From Smithellaceae bacterium (lineage in GTDB: Bacteria; Desulfobacterota; Syntrophia; Syntrophales; Smithellaceae), in NCBI GenBank assembly GCA_963682015.1, contig OY820932.1:3034618-3098617 (forward strand): DNA of 64,000 bases, given 5' to 3'. The notes under the pieces were generated by a model. It ran no database searches. It was not told the DNA's origin and saw only the letters and a program-made list of their open reading frames with translations. Both the position numbers and the translations under genes were made by a program. Below, piece by piece: positions 3,540-60,899 of this stretch (positions within the stretch are counted from its first letter, which is position 1; each line of letters begins with the position of its first letter).

Positions 3540-5483
3540 TCACAGTTCGATTTGCGTTCCCAGTTCAACAACACGGTTGGCCGGAATTCCAAAGTAGGTA
3601 GTCGGATTGCCGGCATTTCTGGACATGAAGGCGAAAAGGGTTTTACGCCAGCGCATCATCTTCGATGATCCGCCGGTCAGGAGTGTTTCTCTTCCCAGGT
3701 AATAGGTCGTGGTCATGGGGTCTGTAACGAGTCCGTACTGGGCGGCCATTTTCATGATTTGCGGTACGTTGGGTTTCTGCATGAAACCATAGATTGCTTC
3801 CAGCCGGTAAAAGTCCTGGCCCAGGTCGGTAATCACAATTCGGTTGCCGGCGGGAACCGTCGGCACGTCTTTTGATATAATGGAAAGCAGAATAACTTTT
3901 TCATGCAAAACATGATTGTGCTTGATATGATGAAGCAGTGTCGGCGGTGTTCCGATCGGGGATAATGTCATGAATACGGCGGTTCCCGGCACATGCGGCA
4001 TCCGGCTGTTCTGCATACTGGTAAGAAAACTGTCCAGCGGAAGTCTTGATCCGATCAACTTATTGTAAAGTTCATCCCGACCTTTTTTCCAGGTGGTCAT
4101 GGCGATGGCGATGACGGCGGCAACCAGAAGAGGAAACCACCCTCCGTCGGCGATCTTGAAGAAGTTGCCGGTAAAAAAGGCGGCATCAAACGCCAGGAAG
4201 ATTGCGATCAGGGGAAGGATTTTCCACCACGACCACTTCCGGTCATAGATCAGCACGAGGAAATACAGGATGGTTGTGATGATCATGGTTCCCGTAACGG
4301 CAATGCCATATGCTCCCGCCAGACCTCCGGACTCTTTGAACCCGATCACAACGGCAAGACAGGCGATCATCAAGGCGTAATTGACAAAAGGAATGTAGAT
4401 CTGTCCCTGCATCTCGCTGGAGGTGTGGATAATCCGCAGGCGCGGGCAGTAGCCCAGTTGAACCGCTTGCTGAGTAAGCGAGTAGGCGCCGGATATCAGC
4501 GCCTGGGATGCGATTACAGTGGCGATCGTGGCCAGCCCGATCATGGGATACAGAAGGATCTGCGGAACGATGTTGTAAAATGGATTGACGCTCATTTCGG
4601 GATGTTGAAGCAGCAGAGCCCCCTGCCCGAAGTAATTGCACAACAGCGCCGGCAGGACGAACAGAAACCAGGAAAACCGGATAGCGTCTCTGCCGAAATG
4701 CCCCAGATCGGCATAAAGCGCTTCGCATCCCGTAATGCAGAGCACAACCGAACCGAGTACGATAATGCCGTGCGTTCCGTTGTTCAGAAAAAAACGGATG
4801 GCGTGGAGCGGATTGACTGCCTGAAACACCGCGGGTTCCCGGACAATTTCGAGAATGCCGAAAGCGCCGATGGTGACAAACCACAACATCATGATGGGCG
4901 CAAACAATTTCCCGATGTGTGTCGTGCCCCTGCGCTGCAGTGAAAAGAGCACTATGAGGACAATGCAGGTCAGCGGCATAACAAAAGGCGTATAGGCTTT
5001 GGTGACAACTTCCAGCCCTTCAATGGCCGAAAGAACGGAGATGGCCGGTGTAATGACGCCGTCTCCGTAGAGCAGCCCGGCGCCTAGGATTCCGCCCAGC
5101 AGAAGGAATGCCCGGACGCGGTACATTTTCTTATCGGTTGTATTGAGCAGTCTGACATGCAGCAGGCCGAGCAGGGCAAAGATACCTCCTTCTCCCCGGT
5201 TGTCCGTTTGCAGAATAAAAATGACATATTTGATGCTGACAACAACAATCATTGACCAGAAGATCAGCGATAAAACACCCAGAATATTGGCCGTGCTGGC
5301 TGTGATGGCATGGGTTCCGTGAAAGCATTCTTTGAGGGTGTATAGAGGGCTGGTTCCGATATCGCCGAAGACAACACCGATGGAGCCGATGGCTAGAAAT
5401 AGTTTTTTTTTATCGAGCAATCTGCCGGGGATTGTTTCCGGTGACTCGATAGAGCCCTCATCTTCATTACCGGGGTGTGACAT
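3540..5483 (-). CDS. kup: KUP/HAK/KT potassium uptake transporter
   Basis: GVVFGDIGTSPLYTLKECF and the 12-TM layout plus cytoplasmic tail are diagnostic of Kup. The second ATG (5483) is preferred because GGAGG sits 6 nt upstream. Confidence 0.9.
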   Translation of the reverse strand: MSHPGNEDEGSIESPETIPGRLLDKKKLFLAIGSIGVVFGDIGTSPLYTLKECFHGTHAITASTANILGVLSLIFWSMIVVVSIKYVIFILQTDNRGEGGIFALLGLLHVRLLNTTDKKMYRVRAFLLLGGILGAGLLYGDGVITPAISVLSAIEGLEVVTKAYTPFVMPLTCIVLIVLFSLQRRGTTHIGKLFAPIMMLWFVTIGAFGILEIVREPAVFQAVNPLHAIRFFLNNGTHGIIVLGSVVLCITGCEALYADLGHFGRDAIRFSWFLFVLPALLCNYFGQGALLLQHPEMSVNPFYNIVPQILLYPMIGLATIATVIASQALISGAYSLTQQAVQLGYCPRLRIIHTSSEMQGQIYIPFVNYALMIACLAVVIGFKESGGLAGAYGIAVTGTMIITTILYFLVLIYDRKWSWWKILPLIAIFLAFDAAFFTGNFFKIADGGWFPLLVAAVIAIAMTTWKKGRDELYNKLIGSRLPLDSFLTSMQNSRMPHVPGTAVFMTLSPIGTPPTLLHHIKHNHVLHEKVILLSIISKDVPTVPAGNRIVITDLGQDFYRLEAIYGFMQKPNVPQIMKMAAQYGLVTDPMTTTYYLGRETLLTGGSSKMMRWRKTLFAFMSRNAGNPTTYFGIPANRVVELGTQIEL

Positions 5484-5544
5484 AAATAACCTCCGAAACA
5501 TGTTTCCGGGAGAATCATTCTCCCGGACGGTTCCGGAACTGGTT

Positions 5545-5662
5545 CTCCTCGTCGAAGCCGACGAAGTTAGCTGAAGGGCTCGGGCCGAAAAGGTTACCCT
5601 ACGCTGATGCGATGCGCCCCCAAAAATTGGGTCCTCCGCTCCTGAGAATCAGGATTAGGCAT
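5545..5662 (-). promoter_or_regulatory. c-di-AMP riboswitch (ydaO/kimA class) in the kup leader
   Basis: The minus strand reads CCUAAUCCUGAUUCUCAGGAGCGGAGGACCCA...GGGGGCGCAUC...CCCGAGCCCUUCAGCUAACUUCGUCGGC. This matches the remembered ydaO consensus blocks (GAGCGGGGGACCCA, GGGGUGAAUC, CCCGAACCCGnCAGCUAACCUCGUAAGC). A hairpin CCGGGAGAAUGAUUCUCCCGG follows, then the RBS. Confidence 0.75.
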
Positions 5663-5707
5663 ATGTGCTGTAGTTTCTAGAACATCTTTTAATGCCTGTC
5701 AATCAGC

Positions 5708-47627: not shown

Positions 47628-47701
47628 CTTAAACGCCAAACGCTCCGGGAGCTTTGGTGGCTCGCAGAGCGTTTGGCTTACCGACTAACGGATTGTTGGG
47701 C
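47628..47701 (-). repeat. attC-like site
   Basis: The minus strand reads GCCCAAC...GTTTAAG. The internal arms GCCAAACGCTC / GAGCGTTTGGC are perfect 11-mers. Confidence 0.45.
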
Positions 47702-47976
47702 TGCTAATTTAAAAAGTGCGAAAGATTGTTGACACTACCAGCTTCGCAGGCTGGGAACGTCACTTGCCACGGCCATCTCTGTGGCGATAAGCCGCAAAGG
47801 GCCGTGGCGGCTGGCGAAGACGCTGGCAACGCAGACCGGCATGACGAATCGATGGTTAAAGGATCAAGGGTTGTTGTCTGTAAAAGACTTGTGGGTGAAC
47901 ATTCACTACCCGGCTAAGGCCCGGTAATCTCTGTGAACCGCCCGGTGCGGACCCGCATGCCGGGTGGTGTGGGGGC

Positions 47977-49518
47977 CAATGCTGTTGAATTAAGGAAAGG
48001 CAATATTGTCCGTGTCCGTAATATATTGGAATTAGTGAATAAACGCATTGACAACAATTTTCTTCTGTGCAAAATATCTTACAAAGTTCGGCAACTAAAG
48101 GCGAATTTTTTCGAAGAAAGTAACTGAAAGGACTTCATTATGGCACACATCATGACTTGAAAAAATATGCCACATTAACGCGTACGCAAAAAAATTTGTA
48201 AAGATTATTCCTCGGACAATTGATCCTTCAAAGAAACAGACCCCAAAAGATTTCACCCGTAACAACAAACTCACCTTTCCAAAACTCATCACCTTTATTC
48301 TCTCTATAACTGCCAGTGGAAGCAGCAAGGGTGTGGATATAAAATCGAGTGACTTTTTTCGAAACGCCAAACGTAGCGGTCTTTGGCCAGACGCCGAAGC
48401 GATCCACCGCAGCACCCTCACCAAAGCACGTGGTAAGATTGATTGGCAGGTTTTTCAATACATCCTCAAGGATGCGGTGCAGTTAGCTTATGATTGTTGG
48501 CCCAAAATCCCAAAATATCTGTGGCATGGTTTGTCGGTCTTTGCCATAGATGGTTCTTTCTACACTCTTCCGGCAACCCAAGACATCCGAAAAGAGTTTG
48601 ATCCAAAAAGTGGACTGCAACATTGCGGTAAAGGACACTTTCCGCAGTGTAGGGTTTCCACTGTCTATGATATCTTCAGACGTCTTCCTATAGCAAGAAG
48701 CGTGGTTACTGTTAATTCATCCGAACGTGATGAAGCGAAAAACCTGTTACCTTTCATTCCCATCAACAGTGTCTTGCTTTTCGACCGAGGTTACCCAAGC
48801 TATGAGTTCATCTCTTACTTGTTAAATACGTTCACAGGTTATTTTATCTTCCGTTGTCCGGCACAACATGCCTTCCCTGCTGTCGAAGAATTTATCGAGA
48901 GCGGCAAGCAGGAAGACGAGATTTTGATCGTTCCAAGCGGAAAATACCTGGCCAAGGTATCCGCAATGCAAAGAGAGACGCTTAAAGCCTTCAAGGTCAG
49001 GATTATAAAACTGGTAAGTCCTGATGGCACGGTATCTGTCCTTTTGACCAACCTGTACAACCAAAAAGAATTCCCGATGCAAGAAATCATCGCGCTTTAT
49101 TTCAGGCGATGGGAGATCGAAAACCACTATCGAGATGAAAAAATTGAGCTCGAAGTGGAAAGATTCCATGGCAAAACATGTAATAGTATTCGTCAGGAAC
49201 TATTTTCGGCCGTGATCATGACAGTCATTTCGAGAACTCTCATGGTTCTGTCATCGCAGCTATTCCAAAAGGAGTCCAAAGAACCCCAGTTTAAGAATGC
49301 TATTATGACTCTTGCAGCAGAAGCTGCGGTGCTCACTGCCGATGATCCTGAAAAATCCATTGAAATTTTTCGATCCATTTTGCATAATATCTACCGTGTA
49401 AAGTACTACCGCCCAAAACTTCCCAGACCAGGTCAACCGCGTGTGACTAAAAAAAGCCTGAATCGATGGGTTTTTAAGAAAATTAGGAATCTCGCTAATG
49501 CTTAATTCAACAGCATTG
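47977..49518 (+). mobile_element. IS4-family insertion sequence, copy A (1542 bp)
   Basis: 18-bp terminal inverted repeats CAATGCTGTTGAATTAAG, flanked by the 11-bp direct repeat GGTGTGGGGGC (47966-47976 / 49519-49529). Confidence 0.85.
48333..49505 (+). CDS. IS4-family DDE transposase
   Basis: DDE motifs VFAIDGS, LLFDRGY and YFRRWEIENHYRDEK (Y-2-R-3-E-6-K). The frame stays open upstream to 48156 and encodes a typical N-terminus (FTRNNKLTFPKLITFIL), so the true start is unclear. Confidence 0.85.
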   Translation: MDIKSSDFFRNAKRSGLWPDAEAIHRSTLTKARGKIDWQVFQYILKDAVQLAYDCWPKIPKYLWHGLSVFAIDGSFYTLPATQDIRKEFDPKSGLQHCGKGHFPQCRVSTVYDIFRRLPIARSVVTVNSSERDEAKNLLPFIPINSVLLFDRGYPSYEFISYLLNTFTGYFIFRCPAQHAFPAVEEFIESGKQEDEILIVPSGKYLAKVSAMQRETLKAFKVRIIKLVSPDGTVSVLLTNLYNQKEFPMQEIIALYFRRWEIENHYRDEKIELEVERFHGKTCNSIRQELFSAVIMTVISRTLMVLSSQLFQKESKEPQFKNAIMTLAAEAAVLTADDPEKSIEIFRSILHNIYRVKYYRPKLPRPGQPRVTKKSLNRWVFKKIRNLANA

Positions 49519-49685
49519 GGTGTGGGGGCTGGGGGAGAAAAACCCCCGGCTACCCGATTGAACTAACTCATCGCATAGGAGTATATCTTAAATGCTGCAC
49601 GCGTTTAAATTCCAATAGGGGTGGGTCCTGACTACATTGTTTGCAATGAAGCTTAAAATAAAATATTTCATGATCCATAAAAAAA

Positions 49686-51010
49686 CACTACTGTCCCAAC
49701 GTTTTCGTAAGGTGATGATGTAAGTTATAGAAAACAATGAGAATAAGCAATAAAAAGTTATTTATCGATTTGAAATATTTTTTTCTGGAATGCCATAGTC
49801 TCGCATTAAATGGCGAGGAGATGGCCGATGAATTCTGGAAGAACGATATTTGCGCAGATCATGGACTATTTGCCGACTTACGAATTCCGGCAATGCGTAG
49901 AACGATATGCAGGAAACTACAAAGTCAAAAGCTTTTCCTGTTGGGATCAATTCTTAAGCATGGCCTTTGCTCAACTGACATACAGAGAAAGTCTACGGGA
50001 TATTCAAGCCTGCCTTCGTGCAGCCAAACAGAAGACCTATCACATGGGCATCCGCGGAAAGATTTCCCGCAATACACTGGCTCATGCCAACCAGACAAGA
50101 GACTGGCACATCTACGCCGACTTCGCCCAAGTCCTGATCCGGAAAGCTCGACAACTTTATGCCAACGATTCGTTCGGCATAGAATTGGACCAAACCATTT
50201 ACGCGCTGGACGCCACAACCATCGACCTTTGTCTTTCGCTTTTCCCGTGGGCAACGTTTCGCAAAAACAAGGGTGCGGTGAAACTGCACGCTCTTCTCGA
50301 TTTGAAAGGAAACATTCCAACGATCGCCTTTATTACCAGCGGGAAAGTTCACGAAGTCAACATTCTCGACAAACTGCCGATAGAAGCAGGCGCTATTTAC
50401 ATCATGGATCGTGGCTATCTGGATTACGCGCGCCTTTACAGGTTACATCAATCAGCAGCCTATTTTGTAACACGTGCCAAGAGCAATGCCAGATACGATT
50501 GTTGTTATTACCAGAAGATCAACAAAACGACCGGTCTAAAATCCGACCAAGTCGTAACCTTACACGGCTACTACACCAGGAAAGATTATCCCGAAAGGCT
50601 CAGGCGTATTGCTTATTACGACGAAGCACGGAACAAGAAACTGATTTTTCTAACCAACAACTTCGCCGTACCGGCCCTGACCATCACGGAGATTTATCAC
50701 AAACGCTGGCAGATCGAATTGTTTTTCAAATGGATCAAGCAACACCTACGGATCAAAGCGTTTTACGGTACGTCCGAGAACGCGGTAAAAACACAAATCT
50801 GGATAGCCATCTCTGTTTATGTTCTGGTGGCAATTATCAAGAAGCAGTTGAACCTGGAGGAGAGTCTCTACACAATTTTACAAATTATCAGCGTAACGCT
50901 TTTTGAGAGAATACCGCTTTTACAAGCGCTTACGGATATTGAGGTTGCATCGGAAAATATAGAAATCAGCAACCAAATGAATTTATTCGATTAACGTTGG
51001 GACAGTAGTG
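49686..51010 (+). mobile_element. IS4-family insertion sequence (DUF4372-type transposase)
   Basis: 18-bp inverted repeats CACTACTGTCCCAACGTT (49686-49703 / 50993-51010) with the 9-bp target duplication ATAAAAAAA (49677-49685 / 51011-51019). Confidence 0.85.
49828..50994 (+). CDS. IS4-family DDE transposase with DUF4372 N-terminal domain
   Basis: MNSGRTIFAQIMDYLPTYEFRQCVERY.., with DDE motifs YALDATTIDL, YIMDRGYLD and YHKRWQIELFFKWIK. Confidence 0.85.
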   Translation: MNSGRTIFAQIMDYLPTYEFRQCVERYAGNYKVKSFSCWDQFLSMAFAQLTYRESLRDIQACLRAAKQKTYHMGIRGKISRNTLAHANQTRDWHIYADFAQVLIRKARQLYANDSFGIELDQTIYALDATTIDLCLSLFPWATFRKNKGAVKLHALLDLKGNIPTIAFITSGKVHEVNILDKLPIEAGAIYIMDRGYLDYARLYRLHQSAAYFVTRAKSNARYDCCYYQKINKTTGLKSDQVVTLHGYYTRKDYPERLRRIAYYDEARNKKLIFLTNNFAVPALTITEIYHKRWQIELFFKWIKQHLRIKAFYGTSENAVKTQIWIAISVYVLVAIIKKQLNLEESLYTILQIISVTLFERIPLLQALTDIEVASENIEISNQMNLFD

Positions 51011-51539
51011 ATAAAAAAATTATTGTAACTGTATTTGCAGTCCGTAGTGTTTTTATAACCTGGCTGACATGATAAGCGTGTTGGCTCTATATACTTATCT
51101 GTGTTAACAAACATTTTTGTCTCACATAATAATATATTATTGTTTGGTGATAATGGCGAATAGCTAATATCGATCGTAAGATCATTATTGTCATATTTCC
51201 ATTCCCATGGAATAAAAGGAAGAAATGGTGGACCAATAGATAGTTGCTCAATGCTAATCGAAGACCGAACATACATTGTAAATCCATCACATTTGTAACT
51301 GTATGTCGCAAACTTCGTCTCCCCTATGTACAATTCGGCGCCCCGATATTCCGTTTTTTCCCATCCCTTCGAATATTGCGCTTGATAGTACGTATCTTTG
51401 GACAAGAAGGAACAACCTGCTTGTAAGAAAATAAATATTATACTCAAGAAACTGATTATCTTACTTACTACTTTATTTGTACTCGCTGTTATCTCGTGGT
51501 TGAGATGATATTGATTATCATTCATTTATCATTCGTCCT

Positions 51540-51592
51540 GTTCAACGACAACATCAGCCGGAGCCGCGCAGCGGCGATCGGCTGTATGTATT
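51540..51592 (-). repeat. attC site, R' half (split by the group II intron; the remainder is at ~55036-55045)
   Basis: GTTCAAC GACAACATCAGCCGGAGCCGCGCAGCGGCGATCGGCTG on the plus strand is almost identical to the core of the attC at 55473-55533. Confidence 0.55.
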
Positions 51593-52063
51593 GTGTACGC
51601 CCGGCACGGGCGTGAACTTATGGGGTGCAAGTCCCCTGTACGAGAATCCTGTTAAAGTTTCAAAGTTGGGAAACATTAACAAAAGTATTAGCCGAAGGCA
51701 AGGGCGGAATCGCGAGAGACCGTCTGAAGGAAGCCGGAGTGCAAACCGATGAGCCGACGAACAGAAACAGCATACAAGGCCCAGTCTCCGGGCAAGTCAG
51801 CACAACATGACAACACCCCGGATTCGGGAGACAGGGTAAATGCTGCGGTTGCATCGGGACAGTTCACGTTCTTATCCGGGGAGACCTGCCCGACAAGGGA
51901 CCGTAATTGCGGAACCGCTCTGTGTGGCAACATGCAGGGTGATCGGGCAGGAGTCAGCAGCGGCCGTAGTAGGCGCGAGGAAACAAGCCCGGCGAAAGGA
52001 AAGAAAAGCCGGGAAAGACTTACCCCGCCGAAGGGCCAAACACAGAGAAGGGGAAGAACAACC

Positions 52064-53404
52064 ATGAGCTCTCATAACACGAAGAATCCGCACGGAGGAG
52101 TGTCCGTGAGGCGCGTGATGGAATCGTTCGACCCAGATGAGAACCTGCTTATGCGGATTTTCTCCAAAGAGAACATGGTGGAAGCGTGGAAACGGGTGAA
52201 GTCCAATCAAGGCGCACCCGGCGTCGATGGAATCAGCATTGAACAATTCCCCGAACACACCAGACCTCTCTGGGCTCAAATCCGACAATCTCTTTTAGCA
52301 GGCACTTACCAACCTCAACCGGTCAAACGGGTGGAAATCCCTAAAGCAACCGGGGGCACCCGCCCTCTGGGGATTCCAACGGTTCTGGACCGGCTGATCC
52401 AACAGGCGATCGCTCAGGTTCTGAGTCCGATCTTTGATCCGGGGTTTTCCGAATCAAGTTTCGGTTTCCGTCCCGGACGGTCCGCCCATCATGCGGTTTA
52501 TCAGGCCCGGGAGTATATTCGGGAAGGCTGCCGCATCGTTGTCGATGTGGACCTGTCGAAGTTTTTCGACACGGTTCATCATGATGTTCTGATGCTCCGG
52601 GTAGCGCGAAAGGTTCGCGACAGGCGGGTATTACGCCTCATCGGGAAATACCTGCGCGCCGGGGTCATAGTCAATGGCCGTCTCCAGGAAACCCTTTTGG
52701 GAGTTCCTCAGGGCGGACCACTGTCACCATTACTGGCCAACATCCTCTTGGATGATCTGGATAAAGAGCTGGAGAAACGGGGCCACCGGTTTGCCCGGTA
52801 TGCGGATGACTTCATGATTCTGGTCAGAAGCGAAAGAGCGGGCAAGCGGGTCATGGAAAGCCTGAAGCGCTTTCTGGAAAATCGTCTCAAGCTCAGGATC
52901 AATCAGGAGAAAAGCCGGGTGGTTCCAACAAATCAGGCCAAATTCCTTGGTTTCATTTTCCGTGGAACCAGAATTGTCTGGTCAGAGAAGGCCTTCCTTG
53001 AATGTAAGCGAAGGATCAGGGAACTGACCGGACGGTCGTGGTTTGTCTCAATGGACTACCGCTACAAGAAGCTTGCCGAATACCTTCGCGGTTGGATGAA
53101 CTATTTCGGGATTTCGGAATATTACCATCCGATTCCTGAAATCGATCACTGGCTGAGAAGGCGTCTGCGCATGTGCTATCTCAAACAGTGGCGCAAAGCA
53201 AAGACCAAGGTGAGGGAGCTTCGCAGGCTGGGAACGTCGCTTGCCACGGCCATCTCTGTGGCGATAAGCCGCAAAGGGCCGTGGCGGCTGGCGAAGACGC
53301 TGGCAACGCAGACCGGCATGACGAATCGATGGTTAAAGGATCAAGGGTTGTTGTCTGTAAAAGACTTGTGGGTGAACATTCACTACCCGGCTAAGGCCCG
53401 GTAA
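52064..53404 (+). CDS. Group II intron reverse transcriptase/maturase (no endonuclease domain)
   Basis: GAPGVDGISIEQF, RPLGIPTVLDRLIQQA, FARYADDFMILV (YADD) and the X-domain FLGFIF..YLRGWMNYF. The product ends right after the thumb domain. The ATG at 52064 has a GGGGAAG RBS. Confidence 0.9.
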   Translation: MSSHNTKNPHGGVSVRRVMESFDPDENLLMRIFSKENMVEAWKRVKSNQGAPGVDGISIEQFPEHTRPLWAQIRQSLLAGTYQPQPVKRVEIPKATGGTRPLGIPTVLDRLIQQAIAQVLSPIFDPGFSESSFGFRPGRSAHHAVYQAREYIREGCRIVVDVDLSKFFDTVHHDVLMLRVARKVRDRRVLRLIGKYLRAGVIVNGRLQETLLGVPQGGPLSPLLANILLDDLDKELEKRGHRFARYADDFMILVRSERAGKRVMESLKRFLENRLKLRINQEKSRVVPTNQAKFLGFIFRGTRIVWSEKAFLECKRRIRELTGRSWFVSMDYRYKKLAEYLRGWMNYFGISEYYHPIPEIDHWLRRRLRMCYLKQWRKAKTKVRELRRLGTSLATAISVAISRKGPWRLAKTLATQTGMTNRWLKDQGLLSVKDLWVNIHYPAKAR

Positions 53405-53453
53405 TCTCTGTGAACCGCCCGGTGCGGACCCGCATGCCGGGTGGTGTGGGGGC

Positions 53454-54995
53454 CAATGCTGTTGAATTAAGCATTAGCGAGATTCCTAATTTTCTTAAAA
53501 ACCCATCGATTCAGGCTTTTTTTAGTCACACGCGGTTGACCTGGTCTGGGAAGTTTTGGGCGGTAGTACTTTACACGGTAGATATTATGCAAAATGGATC
53601 GAAAAATTTCAATGGATTTTTCAGGATCATCGGCAGTGAGCACCGCAGCTTCTGCTGCAAGAGTCATAATAGCATTCTTAAACTGGGGTTCTTTGGACTC
53701 CTTTTGGAATAGCTGCGATGACAGAACCATGAGAGTTCTCGAAATGACTGTCATGATCACGGCCGAAAATAGTTCCTGACGAATACTATTACATGTTTTG
53801 CCATGGAATCTTTCCACTTCGAGCTCAATTTTTTCATCTCGATAGTGGTTTTCGATCTCCCATCGCCTGAAATAAAGCGCGATGATTTCTTGCATCGGGA
53901 ATTCTTTTTGGTTGTACAGGTTGGTCAAAAGGACAGATACCGTGCCATCAGGACTTACCAGTTTTATAATCCTGACCTTGAAGGCTTTAAGCGTCTCTCT
54001 TTGCATTGCGGATACCTTGGCCAGGTATTTTCCGCTTGGAACGATCAAAATCTCGTCTTCCTGCTTGCCGCTCTCGATAAATTCTTCGACAGCAGGGAAG
54101 GCATGTTGTGCCGGACAACGGAAGATAAAATAACCTGTGAACGTATTTAACAAGTAAGAGATGAACTCATAGCTTGGGTAACCTCGGTCGAAAAGCAAGA
54201 CACTGTTGATGGGAATGAAAGGTAACAGGTTTTTCGCTTCATCACGTTCGGATGAATTAACAGTAACCACGCTTCTTGCTATAGGAAGACGTCTGAAGAT
54301 ATCATAGACAGTGGAAACCCTACACTGCGGAAAGTGTCCTTTACCGCAATGTTGCAGTCCACTTTTTGGATCAAACTCTTTTCGGATGTCTTGGGTTGCC
54401 GGAAGAGTGTAGAAAGAACCATCTATGGCAAAGACCGACAAACCATGCCACAGATATTTTGGGATTTTGGGCCAACAATCATAAGCTAACTGCACCGCAT
54501 CCTTGAGGATGTATTGAAAAACCTGCCAATCAATCTTACCACGTGCTTTGGTGAGGGTGCTGCGGTGGATCGCTTCGGCGTCTGGCCAAAGACCGCTACG
54601 TTTGGCGTTTCGAAAAAAGTCACTCGATTTTATATCCACACCCTTGCTGCTTCCACTGGCAGTTATAGAGAGAATAAAGGTGATGAGTTTTGGAAAGGTG
54701 AGTTTGTTGTTACGGGTGAAATCTTTTGGGGTCTGTTTCTTTGAAGGATCAATTGTCCGAGGAATAATCTTTACAAATTTTTTTGCGTACGCGTTAATGT
54801 GGCATATTTTTTCAAGTCATGATGTGTGCCATAATGAAGTCCTTTCAGTTACTTTCTTCGAAAAAATTCGCCTTTAGTTGCCGAACTTTGTAAGATATTT
54901 TGCACAGAAGAAAATTGTTGTCAATGCGTTTATTCACTAATTCCAATATATTACGGACACGGACAATATTGCCTTTCCTTAATTCAACAGCATTG
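53454..54995 (-). mobile_element. IS4-family insertion sequence, copy B (appears identical to copy A, inverted)
   Basis: Same 18-bp inverted repeats and same 11-bp duplication GGTGTGGGGGC (53443-53453 / 54996-55006). Confidence 0.85.
53467..54639 (-). CDS. IS4-family DDE transposase (copy B)
   Basis: The protein in the ORF track is identical to 48333-49505. Confidence 0.85.
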   Translation of the reverse strand: MDIKSSDFFRNAKRSGLWPDAEAIHRSTLTKARGKIDWQVFQYILKDAVQLAYDCWPKIPKYLWHGLSVFAIDGSFYTLPATQDIRKEFDPKSGLQHCGKGHFPQCRVSTVYDIFRRLPIARSVVTVNSSERDEAKNLLPFIPINSVLLFDRGYPSYEFISYLLNTFTGYFIFRCPAQHAFPAVEEFIESGKQEDEILIVPSGKYLAKVSAMQRETLKAFKVRIIKLVSPDGTVSVLLTNLYNQKEFPMQEIIALYFRRWEIENHYRDEKIELEVERFHGKTCNSIRQELFSAVIMTVISRTLMVLSSQLFQKESKEPQFKNAIMTLAAEAAVLTADDPEKSIEIFRSILHNIYRVKYYRPKLPRPGQPRVTKKSLNRWVFKKIRNLANA

Positions 54996-55034
54996 GGTGT
55001 GGGGGCTGGGGGAGAAAAACCCCCGGCTACCCGA

Positions 55035-55463
55035 TTACGTTTTATTATTTAGTTCCATCCTGTAGTGGGATTCGAGAGCCTTTAGTAAGCTGTTTGTTGA
55101 ATTATTTATATGCTCAATGGCGGGTAAACGTTTAAGACCCGGATAAAAATATTCTAATTCCTTCCCTTTATACACTGGATTAATCATTATGATGCACTGT
55201 TGCAATTCTTGATTTTCTGGATAAATATTAGCAATTCCCATTTCTAAAGCTCTGGACCATGCTGCTTCAAGATTATGGCCAATGGATTTCAATTCATTTT
55301 CATCTTTATTCGCAAAATAGATATATGACTTTAAAGCTAATTCAATTGCATGCAAATACAAGTAGTATACTGGTAAAGGTGACGACGAACCATTATTAAT
55401 TTGATTCGCGCTCTCGCAGAAGCCCTGTCCAGTTGTCAGTAATCCAATGTGATGTGTGTCCAT
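55035..55463 (-). CDS. Integron cassette protein, HEPN-like helical domain (tentative)
   Basis: YLYLHAIELALKSYIYF....LKSIGHNLEAAWSRA resembles the helix-2/helix-3 pattern of HEPN domains. The start lies 9 nt after an attC R' box, and the stop abuts the intron-split attC. Confidence 0.4.
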   Translation of the reverse strand: MDTHHIGLLTTGQGFCESANQINNGSSSPLPVYYLYLHAIELALKSYIYFANKDENELKSIGHNLEAAWSRALEMGIANIYPENQELQQCIIMINPVYKGKELEYFYPGLKRLPAIEHINNSTNSLLKALESHYRMELNNKT

Positions 55464-55472
55464 ATTTTATAT

Positions 55473-55533
55473 ACGTAACGAAAAGCTAAGCCGGAGCCGC
55501 GAAGCGGCGATCGGCTTTAGCGACGGGTTATGG
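55473..55533 (-). repeat. attC site
   Basis: The minus strand reads CCATAAC...GTTACGT. Arms GCTAAGCCG/CGGCTTTAGC and GCCGC/GCGGC pair. The stop codon of 55528-56295 lies inside R''. Confidence 0.6.
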
Positions 55534-56308: not shown

Positions 56309-56373
56309 CCATAACGAAAAGCTCAGCCGGAGCAAGCCAGCGGCTTGCGATCGGCTGTAGCGACGGGTTGAAC
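56309..56373 (-). repeat. attC site
   Basis: The minus strand reads GTTCAAC...GTTATGG. Arms GCTCAGCCG/CGGCTGTAGC and GCAAGCC/GGCTTGC pair. Confidence 0.6.
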
Positions 56374-56483
56374 GAAGCCGTGCAGGGCACGGCGGTTAAA
56401 TCATCCTGTCAATCTTCCCGCAAAAAGTATCTCCTTGATTCAGGTCAGAAACAAAAACGCAAAAACCTGAAAGGAGAAACATC

Positions 56484-57356
56484 ATGACACACTATTATCA
56501 AACGTTCTACGAAGACCTTAAGCTCACCGGCAAATCCAATCGAACCATAGCAATCTATGAAAAGCATTTGCAAAAGATTGAGGGATACTACAACAAATCC
56601 CCCGAACAAATCAATGAAGAAGAACTGCGGAAGTATCTGATTGCCATGAAGGATGAGAAACATTATTCCGAAGCGTTCTTCAAACAGGCCATCAGCGCTT
56701 TTCGCTTCTTCTACCATCACATCCTTGAACACGCCGACTGGAAAACCCTTAAATTTATCAAACCGCAAAAAGAAAGGCGATTGCCCGATGTTCTGTCCCG
56801 GGAAGAAGTGAAACTTATCTTGTTCCATGTCCGGGTTCCGCGGCAGAAAGCCTTCCTGTTTACCCTCTATTCCCTGGGCCTGCGCCTCTCGGAAGGACTT
56901 CATCTGCAGATCGGAGATATTGATTCATCCAGAATGCTGGTCCATGTCCGGGCGGGAAAAGGGAAAAAAGACCGGTTTGTCCCTCTGCCTCAGGCCACTT
57001 TGGATGTTCTCAGGAAACACTGGCTCACGCACCGGCACCCCTCGTTGATCTTTCCCGCGCCGGGACGGGGAGAAAACCGCTCGTCTTGCGCCCTGCGTCC
57101 GATGCCCTTTCAATCGGTGCAAAATGTTCTGCGGCTGGTTGTCCGCGAAACGGGAATTCAGAAATGGGTCCACTGCCAGACGTTGCGGCATTCCTACGCC
57201 ACGCATCTTCTGGAAGCCGGCGTTCATTTGAGATTGATTCAGGAATACCTGGGGCATACCTCACCCAAAACCACGGCTAAATACACGCATCTGACACCCC
57301 AGGCCCAGGTTTTTGCGGTTTCAACAATTAACGACATCATGAGCGGCGTCCTCTAA
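56484..57356 (+). CDS. Tyrosine recombinase (XerC/D-like) of the IS91-family element
   Basis: GLRLSEG, GKGKKDRFVPL, LRHSYATHLLEAG and the YTHL catalytic motifs. Confidence 0.85.
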   Translation: MTHYYQTFYEDLKLTGKSNRTIAIYEKHLQKIEGYYNKSPEQINEEELRKYLIAMKDEKHYSEAFFKQAISAFRFFYHHILEHADWKTLKFIKPQKERRLPDVLSREEVKLILFHVRVPRQKAFLFTLYSLGLRLSEGLHLQIGDIDSSRMLVHVRAGKGKKDRFVPLPQATLDVLRKHWLTHRHPSLIFPAPGRGENRSSCALRPMPFQSVQNVLRLVVRETGIQKWVHCQTLRHSYATHLLEAGVHLRLIQEYLGHTSPKTTAKYTHLTPQAQVFAVSTINDIMSGVL

Positions 57357-57357
57357 C

Positions 57358-58449
57358 GTGCGCCTCTCCGGGTTGTTTCAGATGTTCGGGGAGGAGTATC
57401 TCTCCCGGTATGCCGAAGCTATGCCGCCTGCGCACCGCAAGGCGATCGGGGACATTATGTCCTGCCGAACGCAGATGATGGGCGGGAAACGCTTTGATTG
57501 TCCCCGGTGCAAAGCCAAGCAGTACGCTTATCATTCGTGCAACAACCGCCATTGTCCCCGGTGCGGTGGAGATAAAACCGAAGGATGGCTGAAAATACAA
57601 TTCGACCGGCTGCTGCCCGTTCCCTATTTCTTTGCGACCTTTACCTTGCCGGATGCTTTTCGCTTCTTGTTCCGGGCGTACCAGAAGCTTTGCTATGGTC
57701 TCTTCTTTGAGGCATCCGCGCAGGCGCTGAAAGAGGTTGCTTCAAACAAACGCTTTGTCGGCGGGCAGATCGGTTTTTTCGGCGTTTTGCAAACCTGGAC
57801 GTCGGAGTTGTTCTATCATCCTCATATCCATTACATTGTCCCCGGTGTCGGGTTATCTCAAAATCGTAAAAACTGGATCAAGATCAAAAACAAGATATTT
57901 CTGGTTCACATTAAGCCGCTGGGGCTCCGGTTCAAATCCCTTTTTCAGCAGGCGCTGAAGAAGCATCCGGATCTCTATGCGCAAGTGCCGGATGCAGTCT
58001 GGCGTCGAGACTGGGTGGTTCACTGCGAACCGGCGGGCTACGGGCGGGAGGTGATTTCGTATCTTGCGCCTTATATCTTCCGAACGGCGATGACGGATCA
58101 GCGGACCTTGACGCTCCATGAGGATGCAACGGTTTCTTTTACCTGTAAAGATAACAAAAACGGGGAAAGAAAACCCTGCCGCCTTGAGGCGATGGAACTT
58201 ATCGGAAGATTCTTGCAGCATGTCCTGCCCAGAGGCTTTGTCAAGATCCGCTACTTTGGCCTGATGGCCGCCAATCAGGGACATTTGCAAAAACAGCTCA
58301 AATGGCTCATCCTGAAGTCGATCTCTCAAAAAGAACAGGCATGTTTCCTGGTGATTGTTTTTAAGCCCCGGGACAGGCAGATGCGGTGCCGGTGCTGCGG
58401 GTCGCCTCTCGTCTTATCAGAGATTCTGAAACCATCAAGAGGGCCGTGA
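57358..58449 (+). CDS. IS91-family (HUH Y2) transposase
   Basis: An N-terminal zinc-binding region (CPRCKAKQYAYHSCNNRHCPRCG), HPHIHYIVPG (HUH) and a C-terminal CxxC. The GTG start lies 2 nt after the upstream stop. Confidence 0.85.
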   Translation: MRLSGLFQMFGEEYLSRYAEAMPPAHRKAIGDIMSCRTQMMGGKRFDCPRCKAKQYAYHSCNNRHCPRCGGDKTEGWLKIQFDRLLPVPYFFATFTLPDAFRFLFRAYQKLCYGLFFEASAQALKEVASNKRFVGGQIGFFGVLQTWTSELFYHPHIHYIVPGVGLSQNRKNWIKIKNKIFLVHIKPLGLRFKSLFQQALKKHPDLYAQVPDAVWRRDWVVHCEPAGYGREVISYLAPYIFRTAMTDQRTLTLHEDATVSFTCKDNKNGERKPCRLEAMELIGRFLQHVLPRGFVKIRYFGLMAANQGHLQKQLKWLILKSISQKEQACFLVIVFKPRDRQMRCRCCGSPLVLSEILKPSRGP

Positions 58450-58733
58450 TGATATCGATGGTGTGTTGGGATGGTTGGTTATTGTTTGGTGGGTTTTTTC
58501 AAAGGCTGCTTTTGGCCTTAACGGGAAGGTGTTGCTCAAACGCCGTTTTAATGGCTTTTTGCGATGCCAAACGTTTATTACTCCCGCCGGAATCCGACGC
58601 TTTCTTTCCTGCGCGTTCCCGGCGATGCTTTTTGTATTCCTCTATGAACGCTTTTTACCGGTTTTTGCTCCCTCGTCGAGCTCCTTTGTCTTCCGTTTAA
58701 ATCGCATAATCATAAATCGGTGACAGCAGGCTT

Positions 58734-58796
58734 GTTCAACCCGCGATGAAATCGAGGCTCCTGCGTCGCTCGAATTCATCGCTTTATACGTTAGCA
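58734..58796 (-). repeat. attC site of the first cassette
   Basis: The minus strand reads TGCTAAC...GTTGAAC. The arms GCGATGAAATCGAG / CTCGAATTCATCGC pair with one mismatch. Confidence 0.6.
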
Positions 58797-58800
58797 TTTT

Positions 58801-59520: not shown

Positions 59521-59582
59521 TTATGGGTTTTTCGGCAAATGCCATGTTGTTTGCCCATTTTTATACTTGTGGAGGTGCTTCC

Positions 59583-60899
59583 ATGCATCATATTTTACCG
59601 GAATTTCAAAAGTTCATGACCGAAAGAAATCTCGCCCCGAAAAACCAGATTCCCTTTTACGCTTACTGGGCGGGCAAGTTCATTCGTTTCTGTAATGAGC
59701 AGGATGCTACCCCATCTGAATTAAAAGTTCAATTATTTCTTGACGATCTGAAAAAAGACCCGAAACTACAGGACTGGCAGGTCGCGCAGGGCGAAAATGC
59801 CGTCAAACTGTATGTTGATCATTATTTGTCGAAAAATCCGTCCATGCCGGTATCTGAAAAACAGAAGGAAAGACAGCGCAGCTTTTCCGACGCGGCCGCC
59901 GTTCGTCAGAAAATCCGGGAGGCACTGCGTATCAAACATTATGCCTATAGTACGGAAAGTACTTACACGGAATGGTTCCAACGCTTTTACGATTATGTGA
60001 CCAAAGTCAAAAACAAAGACTGGGAGACACAGGGGACGGATGAAGAAGATGTACGTGATTTTTTAAGCCATCTGGCAATCAAGCGGCGCGTGTCTTCTTC
60101 AACGCAGAATCAAGCGTTCAATGCGTTGCTTTTTGTGTTTCGTTATGTGCTCCAAATTGATTTGAAAGACATCAGTCAAACGGTGCGGGCCAAGCGCGGG
60201 CCTAAGCTGCCTGTTGTGCTGTCGGTCGATGAAGTCAGGCAACTGCTGGGGCATTTATCAGGGCGCGATCTGCTTCTGGTTCACATCCTTTACGGAACGG
60301 GCATGCGGTTGATGGAGGTGGCCAGGCTGCGGGTGAACGATGTCGATTTCAACGCCAATTCGATCTTCGTGCGTGGCGGCAAAGGGGATAAGGACCGGGC
60401 AACCGTTTTGCCTCAGGCTGTGATTGAACCGCTGAAAGAGCATCTTAAAGGCGTGAGAGAACTGCATGAGCAGGATCTGGCAAAAGGACATGGCGAGGTT
60501 TATTTGCCGGAAGCGCTGGCACGGAAATATCCGCAAGCAGGAACGGAGTGGCGCTGGCAGTATGTGTTTCCTGCCAGTAATCTTTCCGTTGATCCCCGTT
60601 CCGGCAAGGTGCGTCGTCACCATATCAGTGCAGGAACGATTCAAAACACGGTCGCGGATGCGGCTCAAAAAGCGGACATCCCCAAACATGCCACGGTCCA
60701 CACGCTGCGCCACAGCTTCGCGACGCATCTTTTGATGGCCGGGGTCAATATCCGCGAGGTGCAGGAGTTATTGGGGCACAAGAACGTTGAAACGACTATG
60801 ATTTACACGCATGTGCTGCGGGATATGTCCCACGCCCCGAAAAGCCCGCTGGATGCGCTGCTGGCGGGGTCGGGGGAACTTCTGAAAAAGACTTCCTGA
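59583..60899 (+). CDS. intI: Integron integrase
   Basis: The IntI-specific insertion [37 protein letters not shown] is present. The catalytic set is R (GMRLME), K (GKGDKDR), [10 protein letters not shown] and YTHV. The ATG at 59583 has a GGAGG RBS. The protein has ~100 extra N-terminal residues. Confidence 0.9.

Follow-up and report, generated by a model that had tools for sequence, protein, structure and literature searches.

A group II intron of probable attC-homing type, split by an insertion sequence, in the chromosomal integron of a Smithellaceae bacterium

Results

The locus and its integron

The 64,000-nucleotide stretch of DNA analysed here (the window; positions 3,034,618 to 3,098,617 of contig OY820932.1, assembly GCA_963682015.1) comes from a Smithellaceae bacterium and contains a chromosomal integron, in whose cassette array a group II intron, itself split by an insertion sequence (IS), lies on the plus strand at 51595-55035. 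We assign this intron with high confidence to bacterial class C and, within it, to the lineage that homes to integron attC sites (IIC-attC). The intron, its exons, and the integron are laid out as follows, in window coordinates.

51595..55035, plus strand: group II intron, very probably IIC-attC, running from 5' GTACG to CCCGAT 3', with 1888 nt of its own sequence and a 1553-nt interruption (the IS and one target duplicate)
51540..51594, plus strand: 5' exon, the bottom strand of the attC body, with the complement of the R' box (GTTCAAC) at 51540-51546, a stem-loop at about 51549-51589 and intron-binding site 1 (IBS1, TTGT) at 51591-51594
55036..55042, plus strand: start of the 3' exon, with IBS3 (T) at 55036 followed by the remainder of the R'' box (GT|TACGT when rejoined)
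55035..55463, minus strand: cassette open reading frame (ORF) of 142 amino acids (aa) without a family match, its TAA stop straddling the insertion point
58715-58797, 56310-56375, 55473-55527 and 51540-51594: attC sites, read from the sequence and its repeats
59523..60899, plus strand: intI, integron integrase, with 412-421 bits on TIGR02249 (cut-off 265) for a match at 59907-60860, divergent from the minus-strand cassette array

The chromosomal integron around the intron is genuine, because its integrase scores above the TIGR02249 cut-off and minus-strand cassettes with attC repeats accompany it. To the left of intI, short minus-strand ORFs without a family match are spaced by imperfect palindromes ending in AAC...GTT, and the array has been colonised by several insertion sequences. 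The attC at 51540-51594 shares its repeat family with those at 55477-55519 and 56313-56355, and its stem-loop is imperfect, with an extrahelical T at 51585 on the plus strand. An earlier note on this DNA had recognised that intron and cassettes occupy opposite strands (intron plus, cassettes minus) and that the intron's 3' end abuts the stop codon of the ORF at 55035-55463. The intron stands between this ORF and the attC body at 51540-51594, and its last base (55035) is the third base of the TAA. The stop is kept with or without the intron, being read from 55037, 55036 and, in the empty site, 51594. When the exons are rejoined, the site folds as DNA with −17.6 kcal/mol (z −4.6).

Ribozyme and intron-encoded protein

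The functional parts of the intron were delimited on the plus strand as follows.

51595..52063: 5' ribozyme part, from domain 1 (D1) to the start of domain 4 (D4), with Rfam matches, and with its initial 164 nt conserved across some 70 related loci
51802..51805: exon-binding site 1 (EBS1, ACAA), in the loop GCACAACA of the hairpin 51796-51811, with a 4-bp pairing to IBS1 (UUGU)
52064..53404: intron-encoded protein of 446 aa, a reverse transcriptase (RT) with maturase (X) domain, starting at an ATG at 52064 within D4, with a YADD motif and no internal stop codon
53414..53445: domain 5 (D5), made up of a lower helix (10 bp), a bulge (2 nt), an upper helix (3 bp) and a loop (4 nt)
55000..55033: domain 6 (D6); its branch-point A, at 55029, is bulged, and GAU forms the end of the intron at 55035

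Two Rfam covariance models matched the plus strand of the 5' ribozyme part above their gathering thresholds, namely RF02001 at 51706-51870 (132.5 bits, threshold 32) and RF01998 at 51916-52036 (49.5 bits, threshold 35). The Rfam model for D5 and D6 (Intron_gpII) gave zero matches at E<=10 on the IS-split sequence of 51400-55200, probably because the IS separates D5 from D6. The two domains were established instead via folding and our own count of covariations. With the IS and one duplicate deleted, the intron proper measures 1888 nt, in agreement with the estimate of about 1.89 kb in the earlier note, and its 3' end folds as a canonical D5/D6 pair (−46.5 kcal/mol, z −4.05). In a consensus fold of 30 distinct homologues, compensatory changes on both sides were found in 9 of the 25 D5 and D6 consensus pairs; D6 considered alone has them in 7 of 13 pairs and an invariant bulged A. 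This A lies 7 nt from the 3' end, which fits A-XXX-RAY.

The 446-aa protein comprises RVT_1 (E 2e-43) and GIIM (E 4e-18) domains only, and a domain search of ORF 52064-53404 found no HNH/En endonuclease domain. It scores 423 bits on TIGR04416 (cut-off 300), and its best match among solved structures is the RT of GsI-IIC, which likewise lacks an endonuclease domain (PDB 6ar1, E 5e-141, residues 28-434 aligned). Together with the plus-strand Rfam matches and the class C tree placement described below, these domains bear out the earlier description of a group IIC-like intron whose RT/maturase carries no endonuclease.

An insertion sequence between D5 and D6

The element that splits the intron, and the further copies of element and intron, are the following.

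53454..54995, minus strand: IS4-family insertion sequence of 1542 bp between D5 and D6, with 161 bits on NF033592 (cut-off 115), a DDE_Tnp_1 domain and inverted repeats
53467-54639, minus strand: IS4-family transposase ORF
53443..53453: target duplication of 11 bp (GGTGTGGGGGC), copy on the left of the IS
54996..55006: right copy of the same 11-bp duplication GGTGTGGGGGC
47740..49558, plus strand: 5'-truncated intron copy corresponding to 53217-55035, holding this IS (47977-49518) at the identical site, reversed in orientation, and with a 3' exon that begins T|GAAC
47966-49529 and 53443-55006 in the window, and 3603235-3604778, 3769523-3771065 and 1683132-1684674 in genome coordinates (G000:C1): copies of the IS

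A reading with a 9-bp duplication (GTGTGGGGG) was dropped because comparison of all five IS copies gives 11 bp and an IS of 1542 bp. A spacing of 1 nt separates D5 from D6 in each of the 30 distinct relatives, as against 1.55 kb in this intron, and for this reason the ribozyme is most probably disabled, with neither splicing nor movement to be expected, though the RT ORF is intact. The genome holds one full-length intron and two 5'-truncated copies but no full-length copy free of the IS; since its only other two copies are truncated, no intact intron is left. The truncated copy at 47740-49558 stands at the end of a neighbouring cassette. The other, at 3.603 Mb, starts at intron nt 1370, is 97% identical, and has the 3' exon T|AGCG directly next to the TAA that ends a 175-aa ORF, within a small cluster of attC-bounded ORFs with no integrase in view.

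In all three intron copies, one and the same IS occupies an identical 11-bp site, and its orientation in the full-length copy is the reverse of that in the two truncated ones. Identity among the genome's five IS copies is 100%, whereas the intron copies differ by up to 3%. This difference, like the differing orientation, points to later, separate hits by the IS rather than to the spread of an IS-bearing intron. That the intron might still be active, the long insertion at the D5-D6 joint (J5/6) being tolerated, for example through hydrolytic splicing, is accordingly a reading we consider improbable. In its favour are the intact RT ORF and the duplication itself, which leaves the sequences of both D5 and D6 complete and so speaks against disablement, as well as the shared IS orientation in two of the three copies, which would also be expected had an IS-bearing intron retrotransposed; the uniform 1-nt spacing among relatives, the pattern of divergence, and the lack of a full-length IS-free copy in the genome stand on the other side. 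An inversion between two IS copies as the cause of the opposite orientations was rejected, because inverting 49519-53453 would break the matching D5/D6 flanks of both copies.

The remaining two IS copies have the duplications GCCCCCTCCGG and CCCCACACCCC (reverse complement GGGGTGTGGGG), each of which lies in the 5' arm of a GC-rich hairpin. Together with the identical site in the three introns, this suggests a strong target preference of this IS4-family element. It is conceivable, though we hold it to be rather doubtful, that the element is a site-specific parasite of this intron family that hit the GGTGTGGGGGC junction of D5 and D6 repeatedly and independently; if so, such hits would have inactivated every intron copy. 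Among the relatives that were sampled, this site does not act as a general hotspot, because the one other insertion seen, in relative L061, lies in D1 and not at the D5-D6 site, and the apparent introns of about 3.1 kb at L017 and L021, picked up by a regular-expression search on the intron ends, are no insertion-bearing introns but artefacts of ORF-less derivatives lying upstream.

Some further observations concern the surroundings of the truncated copies. At window 47628-47739, an apparently intact attC (about 47630-47712) with an empty TTGT|TGGGC site precedes the truncated copy by about 30 nt, and the cassette expected after this attC is missing. It looks like a deletion removed the first 1622 nt of the intron in that copy together with neighbouring cassette DNA. 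At G000:C1:3602882-3605400 (L092, L098), the attC-bounded cassette-like cluster lies far from intI and contains minus-strand ORFs of 175 and 110 aa; among its features is an attC without an insertion (L092, 3625-3685) that belongs to the repeat family described above and keeps its TTGT|T site intact, and the truncated intron sits at one end of the cluster.

Target sites and lineage

About 70 related loci in public genomes share sequence from GTACGCCC onward, and 45 distinct insertion sites were compared among them. The four bases preceding GTACG are TTGT at 38 sites, TGGT at six and GTGT at one, and the base following CCCGAT is T at 45 of 45, as it is after all three intron copies of the Smithellaceae genome. 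Upstream of the intron, the related sites show attC-like, AAC-bounded hairpins of the form AAC...GT|T. The published target of IIC-attC introns is TTGT/T (IBS1/IBS3) at the R'' box of the attC bottom strand (PMC7923331), and, as published, they lie between a gene and its attC in antisense orientation relative to the cassettes (PMC7923331, PMC3001079). Within the genuine integron described above, the flanks in the window are ...ATTGT and T..., giving ...ATTGT|TACGT... when rejoined. The intron's 5' end lies inside the attC and not at a distance from its stem.

EBS1 sits in a loop that is conserved among relatives. The only two relatives in which it reads ACCA (L039 and L087, from different sub-clades) are both found at TGGT sites, a compensatory change on both partners. 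EBS3 was not located. The pairing of exon-binding and intron-binding sites looked for in the earlier note thus exists, as a 4-bp EBS1-IBS1 helix that covaries, but the exon flanks given for it there (GTATT / T) were off by 2 nt.

Trees were built with IQ-TREE from 116 RTs, comprising that of the window, its relatives, two class 1 integron introns, some 60 GsI-IIC-type or other IIC RTs, and an outgroup. The IIC RTs were found using the 6ar1 sequence and supplemented by two class C RTs from the PDB, and three non-C plasmid RTs formed the outgroup. The class 1 integron introns were those between catB3 and qacEdelta1 on the Providencia plasmid NZ_CP031121.1 (L090) and between blaIMP-4 and qacEdelta1 on the Klebsiella plasmid NZ_CP124701.1 (L091). 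A quick tree placed the window RT in a 46-row clade with both of them (SH-aLRT 96). In a more careful tree of 69 rows, the other IIC RTs, including GsI-IIC, split at 96/96 from the attC-site group and the outgroup, and the window RT never mixes with terminator-type IIC RTs. Class membership followed from the position of the class C references (GsI-IIC and the IIC RT of E. rectale) together with the attC clade against the three non-C plasmid RTs (support 97), an outgroup that is small and has no named references of classes A, B, D, E or F. The phylogeny thus agrees with the proposal of the earlier note in placing the RT in class C, and it sets the RT apart from other IIC RTs. Its nearest relatives are 84-90% identical and occur in Smithellaceae and Syntrophales metagenome-assembled genomes (MAGs), some of them in multiple copies.

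Four observations count against the IIC-attC assignment as we state it. First, monophyly of the attC-site group is supported at only 69/57 when rooted by the outgroup, and the root could fall inside the group; the rooted monophyly claimed in the literature is compatible with these trees but not strongly shown by them. Second, the 5' end GUACG departs from the general class C consensus GUGYG. It is, however, common to all 53 aligned lineage members, the class 1 integron introns included, and is a lineage variant of a consensus that does not define the class. Third, in the minimum-free-energy (MFE) fold of the rejoined site, the AAC of R' pairs with a second GTT 3 nt downstream (55039-55041) and not with the GT|T at the junction, which leaves a 3-nt ambiguity in the R'' register; whichever register is taken, the intron sits in the R''-side arm. 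Fourth, no sigma-70-like outward promoter was found on the minus strand within 51595-52200 (D1/D2) with a consensus of E. coli type that may not suit this host. Internal outward promoters have been reported in most but not all IIC-attC members, some being listed without one (PMC3001079).

We also considered whether the element is an ordinary terminator-homing IIC intron, outside the attC lineage, that came to lie behind a hairpin which merely happens to be an attC. Class C introns do generally home behind hairpins (PMC7923331, PMC3001079), and the identity of the window RT to GsI-IIC-type RTs, at about 50-54%, is close to the 53-55% shared with the class 1 integron introns; the rooting described above also leaves room for such a reading. 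Nevertheless, the ribozyme ends (GTACGCCC... and ...GGCTACCCGAT) and the TTGT|T-type site are common to the class 1 integron introns and all 45 related sites, other IIC RTs split off at 96/96, and all three copies in the genome abut the ends of cassette ORFs with a T|RRRY-like remainder of the R'' box. A terminator-homing origin is therefore very unlikely, and insertion into attC with IIC-attC behaviour, as the earlier note had supposed, is the reading that we retain.

Three observations on relatives may be added. The Syntrophales MAG CAXXWJ01 contains at least nine full-length intron copies. In this MAG, derivatives of the intron family that are about 700 nt long and lack the ORF, with the 5' nucleotides 1-500 joined to about 120 nt of the 3' end, adjoin full-length copies (L017 841-1577; L021 785-1496 and 5727-6275). 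In a Thermodesulfovibrionales MAG (L061 736-2061), domain 1 of a related intron is interrupted by 1.3 kb of inserted DNA located between intron nt 112 and 128.

The intron ends

In the earlier note, the intron started about 8 nt after the stem quoted there (51555-51584), at the GTGTA of 51593. The start is instead at the GTACG of 51595, 10 nt after that stem. A start at GTGTACG has some appeal, in that GTGTA and GTACG come equally close to GUGYG, and the GT at 51593-51594 is nearly invariant among relatives and could be read as intron. The decisive comparison came from the Providencia locus, whose exons, joined with the GT kept in the 5' exon, are 100% identical to the uninterrupted catB3 attC of plasmid NZ_CP022533.1 with no gap at the junction; the intron is therefore GTACG...CCCGAT, here 51595-55035. 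In addition, relative L036 has GG in place of GT, EBS1 (ACAA) pairs with TTGT and not with GTATT and covaries with position −3, and GT together with the following T restores the conserved GTT of the R'' box. We thus regard the start at 51593 as highly improbable. Least probable of all, to the point of being negligible, is a free-standing or domesticated RT (of retron, DRT or G2L type) beside an attC and without any intron, for which there are weak, sub-threshold matches to retron and DRT models, and which is contradicted by the ribozyme evidence (Rfam D1-D4 matches, D5/D6 covariation and conserved ends) as well as by the above-cut-off TIGR04416 score and the GIIM domain.

Other features of the window

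Between two attC sites, at 56374-58733, an IS91-family transposase (Y2_Tnp and Zn_Tnp_IS91) is paired with a tyrosine recombinase, of which the genome has four copies. On the minus strand at 5541-5671, a c-di-AMP riboswitch (RF00379, 85 bits) was found upstream of the minus-strand ORF 3540-5501.

Discussion

The history of the locus can be proposed along the lines of the established model for this lineage. The intron RNA, bound to its endonuclease-less RT/maturase, would have recognised an integron attC in the form of its folded bottom strand, through the 4-bp pairing of EBS1 (ACAA) with IBS1 (UUGU), with the attC hairpin replacing IBS2 and a U at IBS3. Reverse splicing would then have taken place at TTGT|T in the R''-side arm, beside the stop codon of the cassette, followed by synthesis of complementary DNA (cDNA) that may have been primed by a nascent DNA strand; because the protein has no endonuclease domain, priming of the cDNA must come from host DNA ends. 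Such an insertion would leave the intron antisense to the cassettes and separate the ORF at 55035-55463 from its attC. At a later time, the IS4-family element entered the D5-D6 junction.

Replication direction was considered alongside this model. The cumulative GC-skew minimum lies at 2.36 Mb and dnaA at 2.39 Mb, which together place the origin, and the window at 3.03-3.10 Mb has positive skew, so that forks move rightward through it. The plus strand, which carries the attC bottom strands and the sense strand of the intron, is thus the lagging-strand template. On the lagging-strand template, hairpins can extrude and Okazaki fragments can prime. The placement fits the accepted priming model for introns without an endonuclease, as a correlation only. 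Large sedentary integrons have been reported with their attC bottom strands on the leading-strand template.

The class 1 integron group IIC-attC introns are of the S.ma.I2 / E.c.I7 / Kl.pn type (PMC3001079). With the two plasmid representatives compared here, the window intron shares an endonuclease-less RT/maturase of about 445-460 aa, the GTACGCCC and GGCTACCCGAT ends, and the same EBS1 loop; it also shares the TTGT|T site on the R'' side of the attC bottom strand, the antisense placement between a cassette gene and its attC, and the same side of the 96/96 split in the RT tree. It differs from them in that RT identity is only 53-55%, the intron is interrupted by an IS, and no outward promoter of E. 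coli type was found; moreover, its host is a chromosomal integron of a Syntrophales/Smithellaceae-like genome and not a plasmid class 1 integron. IIC-attC introns of environmental and chromosomal integrons have been described as G.s.I1 (from Geobacter sulfurreducens), N.e.I1, Sh.ba.I2 and UHB.F1 (PMC3001079, PMC7923331). Compared by description only, the window intron resembles these in its published lineage and in the kind of host site, namely attC clusters and sedentary integrons of environmental bacteria, including deltaproteobacteria. With GsI-IIC (6ar1) and the Bacillota loci L100-L135, which are terminator-homing according to the literature, it shares the class C RT architecture without an endonuclease, but the 96/96 branch separates it from them.

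The element adds a new, IS-disrupted representative to the known IIC-attC lineage, and in integron arrays such an element is ordinary. Descriptions of IIC-attC introns date back more than 15 years, and the current understanding of them is unchanged by this example. What it contributes is one well-delimited attC-homing intron in the sedentary chromosomal integron of an anaerobic, Syntrophales-like deltaproteobacterium, and an illustration of the nesting of mobile elements in cassette arrays, with an IS inside an intron inside an attC. Its exact boundaries, its EBS1 and the set of 45 independent target sites bear out, over many phyla, the TTGT/T rule as published.

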